This document shows positions 65 through 7,306 of a stretch of DNA of 64,000 nucleotides, piece by piece. Both the position numbers and the translations under genes were made by a program. Source of the DNA: Thermococcus sp. JdFR-02 (lineage in GTDB: Archaea > Methanobacteriota_B > Thermococci > Thermococcales > Thermococcaceae); the NCBI GenBank assembly GCA_002009975.1, contig MTLP01000007.1:64001-128000 (forward strand). Direction: 5' to 3'. Under the pieces are notes generated by a model. It did no database searches and was not told the DNA's origin. It was given only the letters and a program-made list of their open reading frames with translations. Position 1 is the stretch's first letter, and every line of letters begins with the position of its first letter.

Positions 65-1522
65 ATGAAAGCAAATGATAAAAAGCTCGAGATTTATATA
101 TTTACAGTTGAAGATAAGTATTTTCTCCTTTCTCCTCCAACTGGTATAGTTTTTGAAATTGATAGAAAAACTTACGAGTTTTGTAATACTGTTAGTGTAT
201 TCGGGTGGAGTAAGAGTAAGGAAGAATTTGTGAGGAAATATTCTGAGAGTGATTGGGATGCTTTAATTAGTGAGATTAAGACTGATGAAACTTTGAACAA
301 AATCTTTTTTGGAGAAAAACCTAAGCCCAACCTTCCTCTTGGAAGTATTAAACCAAAACTCTCAAGCTTATCTTTGAATGTTATGGAGGATTGCAATTTC
401 GCTTGTGTTTACTGCTATGGTAACGCAGGCACTTATAACACTCCAAACACTAAGATGGATTTTGAAACTGGGAAGAAAGCCATTGATCTTCTTATAAAGG
501 AAGGAAAGCAAGTTGTTAATATCAGCTTTTTTGGTGGAGAGCCTTTGCTTAACTTTGCACTTATTCAAAAGCTCGTTGCTTACGCTAAAGAAAAGGCTAA
601 GGAGCATAATAAAACCATCAACTTCAGCATAACAACAAATGGTTATCTTATTAACGATGAAGTTATTGACTTCTTCCTTGAGAACAACTTCACGGTAACA
701 TTGAGTTTTGATGGCCCAAAGGAAATTCAGGATTATAACAGATCTCTGAGGAGTGGTGCTGGAACTTTTGATGTTGTTTCAAAGAATGCCAAGAAAATGC
801 TTGAAAAAGGAGTCAAGGTTAGTGTTAGGACCACAATCTTACCAAGCCAGCTTGAAAAGTACTATGACATCTACCGCTTTTTTGTAGATTTCGGGTTTAG
901 AAGTGTCCACTTGGAAATGGCAACAATAAACGAAAAGCCCACGGAAGAACACATTGCGATAATCAAGGAGGCTCTGGAAAAAATTGCAAAGGATGAGTTA
1001 GGACACTACAAGGAAAAGGGGATAGTTTACACTAAGTTAAGGGATATAGTGAGGAGCATCTACTCCACGGCAGTCAAACAGTATCCTTGTGGTGCAGCGA
1101 GGACTTACTTTGGAGTCTCTGCTGATGGAACTATCTACCCCTGTCACAGATTTGTTGGAATGAGCAATTTTATTGTTGGAGGTGTTGATGACTTCAAGTG
1201 GGAGAACGAGTTTATTCAAAAGATCCTCCACTTCACTGTGGACAAGAGACCCTACTGTAGGGATTGTCCAATAAGGATGTACTGTGGAGGAGGATGTATT
1301 TACAACAACTTCTACTATAATGGCGACATTTTCAAGCCTGATGCGTTTCATTGTGCGTATATGGAAGAGTTGTTTAAGTGGGGTGTTTGGCTCTACTCAA
1401 ACCTTGATGAGGATTGGTTGAATAAGGCTTTTTCACGCTCACCCCGTGAAGGGGTGAGGGATGAGACACAAGCCGATGAATCCGAACAAAAAAGAAAGGG
1501 AGGTGATGGAAGTGGCGTTTAG
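65..1522 (+). CDS. Radical SAM/SPASM peptide maturase with N-terminal RRE-like domain (SCIFF/CteB/PapB-like thioether-forming enzyme)
   Basis: CNFACVYC radical SAM motif; FFGGEPLL, ITTNG, SFDG; SPASM cysteines PCGAA...IYPCHRF...CRDC-x5-CGGGC...HC; ~90 aa N-terminal beta-rich extension typical of an RRE; adjacent Cys-rich peptides. Confidence 0.9.
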   Translation: MKANDKKLEIYIFTVEDKYFLLSPPTGIVFEIDRKTYEFCNTVSVFGWSKSKEEFVRKYSESDWDALISEIKTDETLNKIFFGEKPKPNLPLGSIKPKLSSLSLNVMEDCNFACVYCYGNAGTYNTPNTKMDFETGKKAIDLLIKEGKQVVNISFFGGEPLLNFALIQKLVAYAKEKAKEHNKTINFSITTNGYLINDEVIDFFLENNFTVTLSFDGPKEIQDYNRSLRSGAGTFDVVSKNAKKMLEKGVKVSVRTTILPSQLEKYYDIYRFFVDFGFRSVHLEMATINEKPTEEHIAIIKEALEKIAKDELGHYKEKGIVYTKLRDIVRSIYSTAVKQYPCGAARTYFGVSADGTIYPCHRFVGMSNFIVGGVDDFKWENEFIQKILHFTVDKRPYCRDCPIRMYCGGGCIYNNFYYNGDIFKPDAFHCAYMEELFKWGVWLYSNLDEDWLNKAFSRSPREGVRDETQADESEQKRKGGDGSGV

Positions 1523-1664
1523 AAAACTGAACAAAGAAAGAGAGACAATATCACCACTATGTGCGTGGGTTGATATCTGCATAGACTACGACTATTGTGT
1601 TTGGGACGATTGTGGAAAGTTTGATGTATGTATATATGACAACTGCCTTGCGGATACTGATTAA
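1506..1664 (+). CDS. RiPP precursor peptide 1 (6 Cys, Asp-rich core)
   Basis: RBS GGGAGGTG at 1498-1505, start ATG 1506 or GTG 1512; (MEV)AFRKLNKERETISPL-CAWVDICIDYDYCVWDDCGKFDVCIYDNCLADTD. Confidence 0.85.
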   Translation: MEVAFRKLNKERETISPLCAWVDICIDYDYCVWDDCGKFDVCIYDNCLADTD

Positions 1665-1688
1665 AACTTCATACAGGAGGTGTTACAA

Positions 1689-1862
1689 ATGTTTAAAAAG
1701 CTTAATAATAAAAGCCAAAAGACCCAACCATCTCCTGAATGGTGCATTGACATCTGTATAGGTGGCGATGTATGTGGAGCATGTGATACAGCATGTGATC
1801 AGAATGACAGTTGTATTACAGATGGATGTATATTTGACTGTTATTTAGACATTACACCCTGA
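1689..1862 (+). CDS. RiPP precursor peptide 2 (8 Cys, Asp-rich core)
   Basis: RBS GGAGGTG at 1676-1682, ATG 1689; MFKKLNNKSQKTQPSPEW-CIDICIGGDVCGACDTACDQNDSCITDGCIFDCYLDITP; leader shared with precursor 1. Confidence 0.85.
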   Translation: MFKKLNNKSQKTQPSPEWCIDICIGGDVCGACDTACDQNDSCITDGCIFDCYLDITP

Positions 1863-1905: not shown

Positions 1906-2793
1906 ATGGTGAGGAGAATGCTCAGAGTATTCATCAAAAAAGCACTGTATGATAGAACTGTAATTCTTGGTGTTTGTCTTTTTCTCATATTCTACTTTAA
2001 TATCCTTTTGGGAGTGAAGAACTCTACTTATTTTGAAAGCTGGCAATACTCAAAACTTGTTCTTAACTATTTTAGCGACATGCCTTCAATAGTTATTTTA
2101 ATCTTTGCAAGCATTTGGGGTTCAAGAAGCATAAACACCGAGTCTTTGCCATTGATTTTAAGTAAACCCCTTTCTCGATATAATTACTTACTTACAAAAG
2201 CCATGTCCTCTTTTTTATTCTTTTTAGCTTTGTCTCTCTTGTTATATCCAATTTTATTACTTTCTTCTCTTGCTTTTGGGACCTCTATCAGCTTAAACCT
2301 GAGCTTTGTACTAATATTTGCTCTATTTCTCTCTGCTTTCTATTCTATTGGTATGCTCATCTCAACTATAACTTCTCCTAAAAAAGCTCCTGTAGTAGCA
2401 CTCATTATAGTTATCTTATTTGTATACCTAGAATCTACATTTCACCATACAATTGAAAAAGAAGTGCTGAGGATGTACAATATTACCCAATATGATATGG
2501 CAAGATATTTTGCTACTAACGAAAAAATCTTTTGGAAAATTTCAAGTGACATATTTGCTCTTAAAGTCAAGAAAAGCTGGGAACAGTTTTTTAATCCTTT
2601 CACCCACTTTAGAATTTTGTTAACATATATAATGAGCAATGGAAACTTATGGAATTACTACCATTCTCCTGAAATATATTCTATATTCCAAATGCCTATA
2701 AAAGCGTGGAGAGCCTTGGGTTTTCTAATTCTCGATACATTATTACCATTAGTTATAACATTAAAAATCTTTAATCAAAAAGATTTAAGGTGA
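1906..2793 (+). CDS. ABC-2 type exporter permease
   Basis: About 6 TM segments; LILSKPLSRYNYLLTK motif; C-terminal FNQKDLR. Confidence 0.8.
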   Translation: MVRRMLRVFIKKALYDRTVILGVCLFLIFYFNILLGVKNSTYFESWQYSKLVLNYFSDMPSIVILIFASIWGSRSINTESLPLILSKPLSRYNYLLTKAMSSFLFFLALSLLLYPILLLSSLAFGTSISLNLSFVLIFALFLSAFYSIGMLISTITSPKKAPVVALIIVILFVYLESTFHHTIEKEVLRMYNITQYDMARYFATNEKIFWKISSDIFALKVKKSWEQFFNPFTHFRILLTYIMSNGNLWNYYHSPEIYSIFQMPIKAWRALGFLILDTLLPLVITLKIFNQKDLR

Positions 2794-2797
2794 TAAC

Positions 2798-3715
2798 ATG
2801 TGGTCGTTCAAGCTTGAAGCAAAGAACAGCTTGAGAACTAAAAAGTTTTGGTTAACAATAGTGCTGATCTCTCTAGTGTACGTTATAGCCTTTAGGGAGA
2901 TAAAGGACAACCTTAAAGCTACTACTAACCTCCAGGGGGTGTTGACTTTCAGTCTAATAGGCTATATACTTGCGAGTGCTTTTTTGTTCATAGGGTTATA
3001 TGTCCTTATTTTAGGAGCTACATCAATCAACGGTGACCTTGAAAATGGAACGGTTCAGATATCCTTAAGCAAGCCTGTTAATAGAATACAGTATCTAATC
3101 GGAAAGTTTCTTGGACAGTTCGTTTCAATCATTGTTGCACTTCTTTTCGCTACACTCCTTTCTCTTGTCATAACAAGATACTACAGCATATCCATAACAG
3201 TCAAAATAATTTCTGATCTTACAATAGCCAATGCTCTCACGCTCCTCTCAATGCTTCAGCTACTCGCACTCGGCTTACTTATCTCAACCTTCATTCGCTC
3301 TCAGAACACTGCTATCAGCGTTGTTCTCATCCTCTTCCTTGTTACCGGATTGGTGGCACCTCAAATAGTCGACAGCATGGCAAAAGACAGAGCTAGAGAA
3401 GAGTTCCACATCAAAACACCTGAAGATGCCATGAAGATGCCTGTTGAGGAACGCAACAAGTATCACCAACGTCAAATAGAACTCCAGAAGGAGTACCACT
3501 TAAGATACCTGTTCTACATTCCTCAAGTGCTCCTTGAGGATATAGTGATAGATATGCAGAGAACCACTTTTATCAAGGGGAAGATCAGAACAGAGTATAT
3601 CAGGGCTTGGGACGCCATCAAGAACAATCCTTTGAGGGTCTCTCTTCTTGTGGGACTAACCTTGGTCTATCTAATCATGGCAGTTTTTCGCTTTGTTAGA
3701 ATGGACCTGAGGTGA
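2798..3715 (+). CDS. ABC-2 type exporter permease
   Basis: LGATSINGDLENGTVQISLSKPVNRIQYLIGKF motif; C-terminal FVRMDLR. Confidence 0.85.
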   Translation: MWSFKLEAKNSLRTKKFWLTIVLISLVYVIAFREIKDNLKATTNLQGVLTFSLIGYILASAFLFIGLYVLILGATSINGDLENGTVQISLSKPVNRIQYLIGKFLGQFVSIIVALLFATLLSLVITRYYSISITVKIISDLTIANALTLLSMLQLLALGLLISTFIRSQNTAISVVLILFLVTGLVAPQIVDSMAKDRAREEFHIKTPEDAMKMPVEERNKYHQRQIELQKEYHLRYLFYIPQVLLEDIVIDMQRTTFIKGKIRTEYIRAWDAIKNNPLRVSLLVGLTLVYLIMAVFRFVRMDLR

Positions 3716-4635
3716 CAATTGTGTTGAGAATTGAGAATCTAATCAAGATTTACAAGGATATTAGGGCTTTGGATGGCTTGAATTTGGAGGTTAAAGAGGG
3801 GCAGATTTACGGATTTTTAGGACCTAACGGTGCCGGGAAGACAACAACAATCCTGAGCATTCTTGGAATGATATTCCCGCAGAAGGGCAGGATAGAAGTG
3901 CTAGGTGAGGAAGTCTTCAACGGAAAGTTCGATGAAGAGAAGCTCATCAAAGTCAAGTACATGATTGGTTACATGCCTGAGGACGCTACACTCTGGGATT
4001 TTTTAACGCCAATGCAGACGCTTGACATTATTGGTGAAGCTTTTAAAATGTCCAAAGCAGAGAGGCAAAAACGCTCAGAGGAGCTTTTAAAGCTCGTCGG
4101 CTTATGGGACGTCAAAGATAAAAAAGTTGGCAAGCTCTCAAAAGGAATGCGCCAGCGTTTATTGTTGGCACAGGCGCTCATTAATGATCCAGAACTTTTA
4201 ATCTTGGACGAGCCCATGAGCGGATTAGATCCAAAAGGTATTGCTGAATTCAAAGAGTTGATTAGGCAGTTCAACAAGGAAGGAAAAACAGTCTTCTTTT
4301 CATCGCACATCTTAGCTCATGTCGAAGAAATCTGCGACACTGTTGGCGTTATTGTTAAAGGAAAGCTGAGAGCCCAAGACTCTTTGGACAATATTAAAAA
4401 AGAGTTCTTAAGACGGGCTGGCCACACGATACTGATTGAGACAAACAAACCCATCCATATAGATCTTGAGGGAGTCAAAGTTGAGGTTATTGGTACTAAT
4501 AAATACAGGATTATCACAAGCAAAGATGTTAGGGAAGAACTCCACGACTTGATAGCAGTTCAAAACGCAAAAATTCTAACAATGCAGATTAAAGAGCCGA
4601 GCTTGGAAGAAATATTCCTAAAAATGATCGAATAA
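3712..4635 (+). CDS. ABC exporter ATP-binding protein
   Basis: Walker A GPNGAGKT, signature LSKGMRQ, Walker B LILDEP, SSH switch. Confidence 0.93.
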   Translation: MTIVLRIENLIKIYKDIRALDGLNLEVKEGQIYGFLGPNGAGKTTTILSILGMIFPQKGRIEVLGEEVFNGKFDEEKLIKVKYMIGYMPEDATLWDFLTPMQTLDIIGEAFKMSKAERQKRSEELLKLVGLWDVKDKKVGKLSKGMRQRLLLAQALINDPELLILDEPMSGLDPKGIAEFKELIRQFNKEGKTVFFSSHILAHVEEICDTVGVIVKGKLRAQDSLDNIKKEFLRRAGHTILIETNKPIHIDLEGVKVEVIGTNKYRIITSKDVREELHDLIAVQNAKILTMQIKEPSLEEIFLKMIE

Positions 4636-4929: not shown

Positions 4930-5976
4930 TTGAACCAGAGAGTATTTTTAACAAGTGTTAAAAGAATATCAGAGATTGCAATAATCTCTATTTTAATTCT
5001 GCTTATCCTGACATCACTGACTGTTGAAGCCAAGAAGAAAACCCTTATTAACAATAACATGAACCTGCCTCTTTTCTTATGGTACGCTTCAAACAAAACT
5101 GCACAAGAGGAAGCCAAAGTACTTGGAATGAATCAAACAGAGTACTTAGAGTACGTAATCCTTAGAAAATTCGGTTTGAACAAACCGCTCTATGTCTTGA
5201 TTCCCCAACAAATTAAAAGCGCGATAACTTATATTGGGCAGAATAGGGAGTATATACTCATCTCCACTTTTAGAACTGTTCTTCTTCTCCTACTCGTTCA
5301 AGGTTTTATCTTGGTATTTGGTCTGCTCATTGGAGTTCTAGCTGGTTATAAAAGAGACGGCTTTTTGGATAAGCTAGTTTCAACATTGGCGCCTGTGTCA
5401 AACGGAGTTCCCAGCTGGTGGATTGCGGGCATGTTACTCCTTATTCTTTCTCTCAAATTTAATCTATTTCCCGCTTCGGGATATATGTCAATACCTCCAA
5501 AGACGGGTCTTTATTATTATTATCTTGATATTGCTAAGCACTTAGTTCTCCCATTTTTAGCCCTCTTTCTAGCTCGTTTCTGGGAATATGCTTTTATTGT
5601 TAGGAGCTTAATTTTTGAGGAGTTCAAAAGGGATTATATACTCGTTGCTGAAGCTAAAGGTGTTCCAAAAAAGAAAATTTTATGGGGACATGCCCTAAGA
5701 AATATCCTTCCCTCATTCCTTACCTTCACAACATACAACTTTCTCGACCTGCTCACAAGTGTCTTTGTGATTGATATAGTTTTCGATTTAAGAGGACTTG
5801 GGACTTTGTTAAGGATAAGCTTTTTCAGAACACTTGTAAGTGCTAGGGGAATTTTCACAACATTGAGACCAGAGCTTTTCCTTTCTATTTGTATTATTAT
5901 CATGATCCTGTACTTGGTTGTATCCGCAATCTTAGAGACCCTCTACATTTACCTCGATCCAAGAATTGGGGGATAA
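4930..5976 (+). CDS. Peptide ABC transporter permease (OppB/DppB-like)
   Basis: EAA loop DYILVAEAKGV...HALRN; C-terminal YLDPRI. Confidence 0.85.
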   Translation: MNQRVFLTSVKRISEIAIISILILLILTSLTVEAKKKTLINNNMNLPLFLWYASNKTAQEEAKVLGMNQTEYLEYVILRKFGLNKPLYVLIPQQIKSAITYIGQNREYILISTFRTVLLLLLVQGFILVFGLLIGVLAGYKRDGFLDKLVSTLAPVSNGVPSWWIAGMLLLILSLKFNLFPASGYMSIPPKTGLYYYYLDIAKHLVLPFLALFLARFWEYAFIVRSLIFEEFKRDYILVAEAKGVPKKKILWGHALRNILPSFLTFTTYNFLDLLTSVFVIDIVFDLRGLGTLLRISFFRTLVSARGIFTTLRPELFLSICIIIMILYLVVSAILETLYIYLDPRIGG

Positions 5977-5980
5977 GTAA

Positions 5981-7306
5981 ATGATTGAAGAAAAATCCAT
6001 TAAATATGGTTTCCTGATCATAACCTCTTTCATCCTTTTATCTCTCCTAACTCCCTTTATAGTTCCTGAGGAAAGGGTTAAGTACTGGAACGATGGTAAT
6101 TACTGGATTAAGAATCCTAAACTTGCGCCACCCAAGTGGTACAACTATTTTACAAGCAAAGACAGAACACCAACTGAGATTCTCACTCCAAAACAAAAGA
6201 AAATTGAGAATTTTAATTCTTTAAGGATGTACAATTTCTCCTTTGAATATGACTACACTTATTATGTTCCTCCTCAAGATATTTGGATAAATCTTAATGT
6301 TAATTCGAGCAATGCACTTTATGAGGTTTCCTTTATCCGTCCAGATAGGATCAATATTCTGCTCCTTCAAGGGGAAGTCCAAAAGGGAGAAATCTCCCTA
6401 AAAACACGTCAAGAAGTCAGAAAAACTGTCATGAACTTTGCAATGGAGAAGCTTGATGTAAAGACATTCAACCAGCTCACCTTCAATCCCTTTGAATACC
6501 TTTTTTCATCCAAAAGCGGAAATCCTCTGAAGGGTGTTTATAGAATTGATGTTGTTATTTACTCTTTTAATCAGAGTGATGTTATTGAAGAGCCGAGCAT
6601 TAGAATTGTGGGAAGTTGCTATGGGATTTTAGGGACTGATAATATGGGAAGAGACTTATTTGTGGGTTTTATATGGGCTATGAGGAATACACTATTTTTA
6701 GCTTTATTTGTCGCTCTCTTCACAGTGTTTTTTGGAACACTCTTTGGTTTAATAACTGGTTACATAGATTCAAGATTAAGTAAAGCTCTTGAATTTGTAA
6801 ACAAAGTTTTCCTTGCTCTTCCTGTTCTTCCAACTGCTTTAATCATAACATATCTCATCTCGGTTCAGAGTGTGGGTAAGAGCGTGGAGCTTTCAACATT
6901 TGAGTTTTCAATTATACTGAGTGCATTACTTTGGGGAAAACCTGCACGGAGTATAAAGGCAATTGTTGAACAAGAAAAGGTTCAAGAATACGTTACTGTT
7001 GCTGAAAGCATTGGTGCAAGCAAATTCTATATTCTAAGAAGACATATATTGAAAAAAGTCCTCCCTTACTCTTTTGCAGTTCTCTCAATAACAGTTCCAA
7101 AGGTCATTGTTCTTATTTCGCTTTTTGGATTTTTTGGTATCGTTCCTGGGATTAATTGGGGCTCTTTCATGGCTGAAGCATTGGAAAGGGGTGGATTTTA
7201 TGGTGGTGTTTGGTGGTGGATAATTCCACCAGGATTAGCAATAGCCTTGATTGGGATTGGCTTCGTCTTGATAAATAAGGGAATAGAAAAATGGTTAGGA
7301 ATATAG
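5981..7306 (+). CDS. Peptide ABC transporter permease (OppC/DppC-like)
   Basis: LGTDNMGRD, EYVTVAESIGAS...RHIL, WWWIIPPG. Confidence 0.85.
   Translation: MIEEKSIKYGFLIITSFILLSLLTPFIVPEERVKYWNDGNYWIKNPKLAPPKWYNYFTSKDRTPTEILTPKQKKIENFNSLRMYNFSFEYDYTYYVPPQDIWINLNVNSSNALYEVSFIRPDRINILLLQGEVQKGEISLKTRQEVRKTVMNFAMEKLDVKTFNQLTFNPFEYLFSSKSGNPLKGVYRIDVVIYSFNQSDVIEEPSIRIVGSCYGILGTDNMGRDLFVGFIWAMRNTLFLALFVALFTVFFGTLFGLITGYIDSRLSKALEFVNKVFLALPVLPTALIITYLISVQSVGKSVELSTFEFSIILSALLWGKPARSIKAIVEQEKVQEYVTVAESIGASKFYILRRHILKKVLPYSFAVLSITVPKVIVLISLFGFFGIVPGINWGSFMAEALERGGFYGGVWWWIIPPGLAIALIGIGFVLINKGIEKWLGI

Follow-up and report, generated by a model that had tools for sequence, protein, structure and literature searches.

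The window analysed here, a 64,000-nucleotide stretch of contig MTLP01000007.1 from Thermococcus sp. JdFR-02, contains a gene for a radical S-adenosylmethionine (SAM)/SPASM maturase and, directly 3' of it on the plus strand, two small open reading frames interpreted as precursor genes, each encoding a leader followed by a core rich in Cys and Asp. Together these genes probably represent an unannotated archaeal family of ranthipeptides, in which the sulfur of Cys would be joined to the beta-carbon of Asp by thioether cross-links, a kind of peptide chemistry known from bacteria and placed here in a heat-loving host that has been little explored. The features of the maturase and precursor region are as follows.

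65 to 1522, plus strand: radical SAM/SPASM maturase of 485 residues, with an N-terminal leader-recognition domain resembling the recognition element (RRE) of ribosomally synthesised and post-translationally modified peptide (RiPP) systems; Pfam Radical_SAM, Fer4_12 and SPASM.
1499 to 1507, plus strand: GGAGGTGAT, Shine-Dalgarno sequence of precursor 1 as read from the sequence, overlapping ATG 1506 and 4 nucleotides upstream of GTG 1512.
1512 to 1664, plus strand: precursor 1, alternative start ATG 1506, stop codon 1662-1664; leader A-F-R-K-L-N...S-P-L, core with six Cys and nine Asp.
1676 to 1682, plus strand: GGAGGTG, Shine-Dalgarno sequence of precursor 2 as read from the sequence, 6 nucleotides before ATG 1689.
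1689 to 1862, plus strand: precursor 2, 57 residues, from ATG 1689 to the stop codon 1860-1862; leader M-F-K-K-L-N...P-S-P-E-W, core with eight Cys and eight Asp.
1878 to 1889, no strand assigned: oligo-T tract TTTTTTATTTTT, directly 3' of precursor 2, read from the sequence.

Within core 1, the six Cys are separated by gaps of 5, 5, 4, 5 and 4 residues and every internal gap ends in a D-x-C unit, giving five such units; read in the direction from Cys to Asp, the same residues form four CX3D units (CAWVD, CIDYD, CVWDD and CGKFD) and then two CX2D units (CIYD and CLAD). Core 2 contains three CX3D units (CIGGD, CGACD and CDQND) and then three terminal CX2D units (CITD, CIFD and CYLD), its first unit being CID, a CX1D, and its ratio of Cys to Asp 8:8, two features absent from the earlier sequence-only reading of this stretch. 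That reading had described a single leader type on two divergent precursors and the spacing code of each core, and the leader strings and both codes were found in the sequence as it had stated them. Its description of the cores as strongly acidic and aromatic holds fully for the acidity, the net charge being -8 in each core, and mainly for core 1 as regards aromatic residues (six, against two in core 2). An Asp precedes the next Cys or the C-terminus for 13 of the 14 Cys of the two cores, and one Cys in the precursor 2 stretch C-G-A-C-D-T-A-C-D-Q-N-D has no Asp in its own gap; ordered one-to-one pairing in this stretch would give overlapping CX3D, CX4D and CX3D rings. Comparison of precursor 1 with its orthologue from the locus whose maturase is 87% identical showed that the CX3D Asp of the second ring is kept and the CX1D Asp is not.

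The same arrangement extends across the family, for which Cys and Asp statistics were compiled from 18 precursors with 113 Cys in nine Thermococcaceae genomes. An Asp occurs before the next Cys or the C-terminus for 105 of the 113 Cys, rising to 111 when Glu is also counted, and the first Asp follows at a spacing of X0 for 10 Cys, X1 for 8, X2 for 49, X3 for 33 and X4 for 5. When Cys positions were held fixed and the remaining core residues shuffled over 5000 rounds, a procedure in which the relatedness of the peptides leads to an overstatement of independence, a mean of 82.0 Cys were followed by Asp and no shuffle reached the observed 105; likewise, 89 of the 113 Cys stand in CX2D or CX3D units, whereas the shuffled cores averaged 43.9 and none of the 5000 shuffles reached 89. 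The sequence-only reading had proposed an alignment of homologous cores as the means of deciding which Cys-Asp register is conserved, and in 25 core pairs of similar length and 45-95% identity the Cys-then-Asp arrangement is kept, with retention of Cys at 154 of 159 aligned positions (97%), Asp at 159 of 180 (88%) and other residues at 241 of 573 (42%), a measure that is partly circular given that the alignments were anchored on identities. The condition named in that reading as its refutation, Asp positions that shift freely relative to Cys among homologues, is thus contradicted at the level of sequence.

All 18 peptides mix at least two spacings, and mixed ring size would for that reason appear to be a trait of the family. 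The combination of N-terminal CX3D with C-terminal CX2D rings had been regarded in the sequence-only reading as an unusual mixed topology; the mixing is borne out, and the fixed order and the rarity are not. A strict rule placing CX3D first and CX2D last describes a common arrangement and fails across the 18 peptides, several of which finish in CX3D, and mixed ring size is less exotic than had been supposed because PapB is reported to cross-link CX0D to CX6D substrates in vitro, those from X1 to X5 to completion (PMC9413430).

The maturase itself is most similar to enzymes known to form Cys thioethers. Its four best NCBIfam models are all Cys-thioether maturases acting on non-alpha carbons, with PapB first (NF047865, 279.9 bits; cut-off of 340 not reached), followed by the nif11-type maturase (276.7 bits; cut-off of 518.7 not reached), QhpD (TIGR03906, 254.8 bits; cut-off of 453 not reached) and the SCIFF maturase (TIGR03974, 254.8 bits; cut-off of 425 not reached). 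Of proteins with a known structure, CteB (5wgg) is the closest relative, with an E of 2.6e-58 and an alignment that spans residues 17-443. The radical SAM motif CX3CX2C (C110, C114 and C117) is present and invariant in an alignment of 58 rows, as are seven SPASM Cys (C342, C360, C398, C401, C407, C411 and C430). A quick maximum-likelihood tree of these 58 rows, unrooted and from a short search, in which 13 rows reach the cut-off for SCIFF and one that for PapB, clusters the window maturase with three Thermococcus proteins (Shimodaira-Hasegawa-like approximate likelihood ratio test, SH-aLRT, 97), and Thermococcus proteins are also its closest named relatives. With one other row and two more clades of Thermococcaceae, this group makes up a nine-row archaeal branch. 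The Thermococcus relatives P0003-P0009 and P0012 were likewise without a family at E <= 1e-95. Two other kinds of system were considered and set aside: the Cys-every-fifth system (CefB, NF038107), for which the maturase scores 119.8 bits against a cut-off of 600 despite the period of about five residues between Cys in core 1, and the CXXX-repeat systems, for which model scores lie far under the cut-off. Three more distant radical SAM/SPASM-like matches, with 22-29% identity to the window maturase, occur elsewhere in its own genome, at G000:C22:25749-26762 (L018), G000:C1:132213-133172 (L025) and G000:C1:147880-148428 (L026).

The leader is much more uniform than the cores that follow it, with the motif F-[KR]-[KR]-L-[NT] (F-[KR]-K-L-N in the window pair) and then a Pro just before the core; F2, L5 and the pre-core Pro are invariant in 22 sequences, for which mean column identity is 35%. 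The sequence-only reading had also pointed to structure prediction as a way of examining binding between the RRE and the leader. The modelled complex combined the entire maturase, represented by an alignment of 58 rows, with precursor 2, represented by one of 22 rows, and also held three 4Fe-4S clusters and SAM. It scored 0.89 against 0.00 for the best of three controls; among solved complexes 116 of 157 attain this mark, and among mismatched pairs 2 of 215. Agreement of contacts between runs was at least 24% and the pLDDT value (predicted local distance difference test) of the partner at least 32. The confident contacts place precursor 2 residues 1-7, which include F-K-K-L-N, on maturase residues 21, 27-33, 35-36 and 70-77, with a few further modelled contacts near residues 332-335 and 441-457. 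The model supports the prediction that the conserved leader binds the N-terminal recognition domain.

The 5' part of precursor 1 overlaps the 3' end of the maturase gene (65-1522), and its true start is more likely GTG 1512 than ATG 1506, because GGAGGTGAT covers ATG 1506 while most orthologous first precursors have this motif 5 nucleotides upstream of a GTG or ATG immediately before the Phe codon. Precursor 1 also matches the family profile in its own genome (E 2.9e-13). Oligo-T runs terminate transcription in archaea, and the TTTTTTATTTTT tract may be such a termination signal. The tract TTTTTTATTTTTATAA (1878-1893), which lies between precursor 2 and the ABC-2 transporter genes described below, could serve as an oligo-T stop and at the same time as a TATA-like element, and a high ratio of peptide to transporter transcript may result from it.

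A search of 97 Thermococcaceae genomes, that of the window among them, showed maturases at least 68% identical to the one studied here, hereafter clade A, in 9, and the best match in 24 genomes from other families was much more distant (E 3.3e-49, 33% identity, first search). In all nine maturase-bearing genomes, the maturase is followed by one to three small same-strand open reading frames with a common leader, and four metagenome loci also hold the maturase with adjacent precursor variants. A locus search of genome contigs with the maturase returned one locus, in a Thermococcus metagenome-assembled genome, with 87% identity. A profile of 22 peptides searched against 1.84 billion representative proteins gave 11 matches at E <= 0.001, every one of which follows the leader and core scheme of the family. 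No model matching the precursors was found in Pfam and NCBIfam, where there were only two weak matches far under the cut-off and no match to the SCIFF peptide model of NCBIfam, and a word-index search with precursor 2 returned only itself. Precursor number and transporter content vary among loci, because one orthologous locus has a third precursor about 0.5 kb past the second (L029, 493-666, minus strand) and another (L030/L045) has a single precursor and no downstream ABC-2 set.

A sequence of events can be proposed from these observations. The two precursors would be translated from strong ribosome-binding sites, the first by translational coupling to the maturase gene, and the short leader would, according to the prediction, bind in the form of a strand to the N-terminal recognition domain that the maturase carries. 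By homology, the enzyme would then join each Cys sulfur to the carbon beside the carboxylate of the following Asp, or rarely Glu, and repeated linking would leave precursor 1 with about six small thioether rings and precursor 2 with about eight, mostly of the CX2D and CX3D sizes. One-to-one pairing in the C-x-x-C-D-x-x-C-D stretch of precursor 2 would make some of these rings overlap. The anionic cross-linked products may finally be handled by the adjacent ABC-2 transporter and/or by a pair of Opp/Nik-type permeases.

The same enzyme and peptides can also be read in the opposite register, in which the partner of each Cys would be the Asp lying two positions to its N-terminal side (D-x-C) and the first Cys and last Asp would stay free, a reversed polarity that the sequence-only reading had offered as its alternative and that is considered very unlikely here. 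A point in its favour, and one that speaks against the Cys-then-Asp register, is that D-x-C is the sharpest and commonest single spacing, accounting for 54 of 95 inter-Cys gaps and all five internal gaps of core 1, and no single spacing from Cys to Asp stands out to that degree. For a radical SAM RiPP of a streptococcus, thioether links to an upstream Asn (N-x-x-C) are also described. However, all 18 peptides have an Asp no more than five residues beyond their last Cys, whereas only 2 of them have one in the five residues ahead of the first; in the other 16, the first Cys would find no such Asp upstream. This favours a polarity like that of PapB, in which the Cys stands N-terminal of its Asp. 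Moreover, the peptides end 0-3 residues past the last Asp and the numbers of Cys and Asp are equal in 12 of the 18 cores, and, judged from the sequences, it would be only in the Cys-then-Asp register that each Cys gets a partner. PapB, the best-matching family model, is likewise reported to need an acceptor that is C-terminal of the Cys (PMC12373016).

An unlikely explanation, although less so than reversal of the register, is that the maturase makes some other link, such as an alpha-carbon thioether (sactionine), a bond to an acceptor other than Asp or Glu or another radical change, with the Asp serving for recognition or solubility. SPASM enzymes are chemically diverse, and the maturase passes no curated family cut-off, sits on its own branch and matches sactipeptide maturase models, albeit weakly (RumMC, 101.1 bits; cut-off 720). 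However, the four best models are non-alpha thioether maturases at 255-280 bits, against about 100 for the sactisynthase model, and conservation between related cores is confined to Cys and Asp. Sactipeptides have a hairpin pattern instead of the in-line one seen here. The arrangement of one Asp per Cys in line corresponds to the reported substrate logic of PapB (PMC9413430). It is more improbable still that the peptides are unmodified, as small metal-binding, Fe-S or disulfide-containing proteins that merely adjoin a radical SAM gene, a possibility suggested by their richness in Cys and carboxylates and by the genome, described below, that has a precursor without a cognate maturase. Against this, a precursor adjoins the maturase in all of the maturase-bearing genomes, with start-stop overlap, the architecture combines a conserved leader with a hypervariable core, the leader is predicted on the recognition domain of the enzyme at a score well above its best control, and no metal-binding family in Pfam or NCBIfam is matched. 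An all-disulfide fold was dropped, as 11 of the 18 peptides have an odd Cys count. The reading of a Cys-Asp ranthipeptide family is consequently preferred to each of these, and the sequence-only account is supported in part: the shared leader and the variable cores are borne out, beside a maturase for which PapB is the best family model, the fixed order of CX3D and CX2D is not, and the reversed polarity that it offered as an alternative is disfavoured.

Several further observations weigh against the preferred reading. The type of cross-link and the acceptor atom are assigned purely by homology, the radical mechanism likewise being drawn from PapB, QhpD and CteB, and the maturase falls under the curated cut-off of every NCBIfam thioether-maturase model. 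The nine-row archaeal branch (SH-aLRT 99) lies apart from the rows labelled as SCIFF and PapB, and its chemistry could differ from theirs. The core is placed with low confidence in the complex model, the high score of which may only reflect likeness to the complex of CteB with its substrate, reportedly a solved structure. Among the 113 Cys, two have no acidic residue at all in their own gap, several cores contain spare Asp (precursor 1, for example, has nine Asp for six Cys), and the shuffle tests do not account for kinship among the peptides. In addition, genome G083 has an intact precursor beside the permease pair without a clade-A maturase: at locus L055 (G083:C44), a precursor of the window family (4306-4506, minus strand) stands right after the Opp/Nik-type pair and before the ABC-2 genes, the locus has no maturase gene, and a search of this 99%-complete genome at E <= 1e-60 returned none of clade A. 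Lastly, a protease gene was not seen at the locus.

Among characterised systems, the closest parallel is PapB and its substrate PapA (freyrasin) of Paenibacillus polymyxa, which share with the present system repeated Cys-then-Asp units and one C-terminal acidic acceptor per Cys. PapB is reported to link Cys sulfur to the beta-carbon of Asp, to accept Glu and to tolerate spacings of CX0-6D (PMC9413430, PMC12373016). The two systems differ in that freyrasin has uniform CX3D units whereas the natural substrates here mix CX0-4D, and in that the archaeal loci have a leader of about 14-17 residues with F-K-K-L-N, two or three divergent precursors per locus, a linked Opp/Nik-type permease pair and a maturase on a separate archaeal branch. 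CteB and CteA (SCIFF, thermocellin) resemble the present system in having an N-terminal recognition domain within the alignment and a common seven-Cys SPASM pattern; they differ in that the window maturase lies outside the SCIFF-labelled branch of the tree and its precursors have no SCIFF peptide match. The link in thermocellin joins Cys to the gamma-carbon of Thr, not to Asp.

QhpD, which acts on QhpC in quinohemoprotein amine dehydrogenase maturation, is reported to form Cys-Asp (S to C-beta) and Cys-Glu (S to C-gamma) thioethers and to use an RRE (PMC13692751), but the peptides here are short and free-standing rather than an enzyme subunit, and no dehydrogenase subunit genes were found near the maturase, the neighbours of which are transporters only. 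An archaeal precedent is CrpC of Methanococcus voltae, a SPASM enzyme reported to place ranthionine links on the Cys-rich CrpA with its C-X-X-Q/D motifs (PMC13692751). The window maturase scores 95.5 bits against a cut-off of 525 for the CrpC model (TIGR04463), and CrpA is a large repeat protein with a leader-like region of 47 residues, whereas the precursors here have 42-61 residues. Ranthipeptide clusters are described as 'only recently reported in archaea' (PMC13635244). Full-text searches of a library of papers showed, among the papers listed, none on such a cluster in Thermococcales, and the main text of PMC10288494 contains neither 'archae' nor 'thermococc', although its supplements may list such proteins. 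The kind of chemistry is already known, in the Cys-Asp and Cys-Glu thioethers made by PapB and QhpD; what would be new here is the separate and unclassified maturase branch, a precursor family new to the libraries searched, the naturally mixed rings and an importer-type pair as an unusual partner.

Two further Thermococcaceae clades of maturase are associated with peptides of related design. Maturases of a second clade (clade B), about 40% identical to that of the window, precede a different precursor of 49-51 residues, and this precursor is directly followed by an Opp/Nik-type permease pair. Every one of the four Cys in this precursor has an Asp or Glu behind it at CX3 spacing (CGVLD, CPFPE, CWWPE and CYGPE). 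Maturases of a third clade, with 37-46% identity, precede one to four tandem precursors of about 30 residues, in which the core has two Cys in the approximate pattern C-x4-D-x2-C-E-x3-E, again Cys and then acidic residues. The loci of these precursors are as follows.

Second clade, leader M-E-F-E-V-V-N-P-G-D: L015 2922-3074, plus strand; also L039, L040 and L035.
Third clade, leader M-R-A-L-V/T-K...K-P: L036 about 2760-3180; L037/L038 2810-2947; L041 2670-2975; L003 2861-3113; L004 2887-3042.

Downstream of the precursors, the window contains the following transporter genes.

1906 to 2793, plus strand: ABC-2 family permease (Pfam ABC2_membrane_2, E 4.6e-15).
2798 to 3715, plus strand: ABC-2 family permease (Pfam ABC2_membrane_2, E 1.2e-45).
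3712 to 4635, plus strand: DrrA-like ABC transporter ATPase (NCBIfam drrA, 233.8 bits; Pfam ABC_tran and DrrA1-3_C).
4930 to 5976, plus strand: Opp/Nik/Dpp-type permease resembling a B subunit (Pfam BPD_transp_1, E 8.5e-27).
5981 to 7306, plus strand: Opp/Nik/Dpp-type permease resembling a C subunit (Pfam BPD_transp_1, residues 252-437).

The ABC-2 permease at 2798-3715 has counterparts of 57-59% identity in L055, which lacks the maturase, and in three clade-A loci for which a wide context was available. The ABC-2 set is missing from all three loci of the second clade and from one locus of clade A. Beyond the window edge, upstream of the maturase, lie a further ABC-2 permease and ATPase. In the window the maturase is followed by the B/C pair, as it is in three of four other clade-A loci and in three of three second-clade loci (14-16 kb of context), and the pair is linked to a precursor at eight of the nine clade A and B loci with enough context, including the maturase-less locus. 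In NCBIfam, the B-like permease comes nearest to Opp2B (nickel), Opp4B and NikB, at scores well short of each cut-off, and the C-like permease, which has about 200 extra residues ahead of the transport domain, to Opp4C, Opp2C, NikC and CntC, also below cut-off, so that the best families of the pair, at this sub-threshold level, are the B and C subunits of nickel, oligopeptide, dipeptide and staphylopine importers. Neither a solute-binding protein nor an importer ATPase gene was found next to the pair in the window. A possible but doubtful explanation is that the anionic cross-linked peptides are secreted and retaken via the Opp/Nik-type pair, acting as a metal carrier or a cell-to-cell signal of hyperthermophilic archaea and not as a toxin. 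This is suggested because no other neighbour accompanies the precursors as constantly as the permease pair, the ABC-2 exporter being absent from the three clade-B loci and one of clade A, and because the best family matches of the pair are nickel, opine and peptide importers.

PapB is reportedly under development as a peptide-stapling catalyst (PMC9413430, PMC12373016), an application in which a thermostable relative with relaxed spacing and a very short leader could serve. Archaeal ranthionine links have so far been demonstrated on a large methanogen protein (PMC13692751); if the chemistry proposed here is true, the cluster would represent a peptide-sized ranthipeptide family of hyperthermophilic archaea with a maturase outside all curated families, and its acidic products and linked importer-type permeases hint at a role other than that of a classical cationic bacteriocin.

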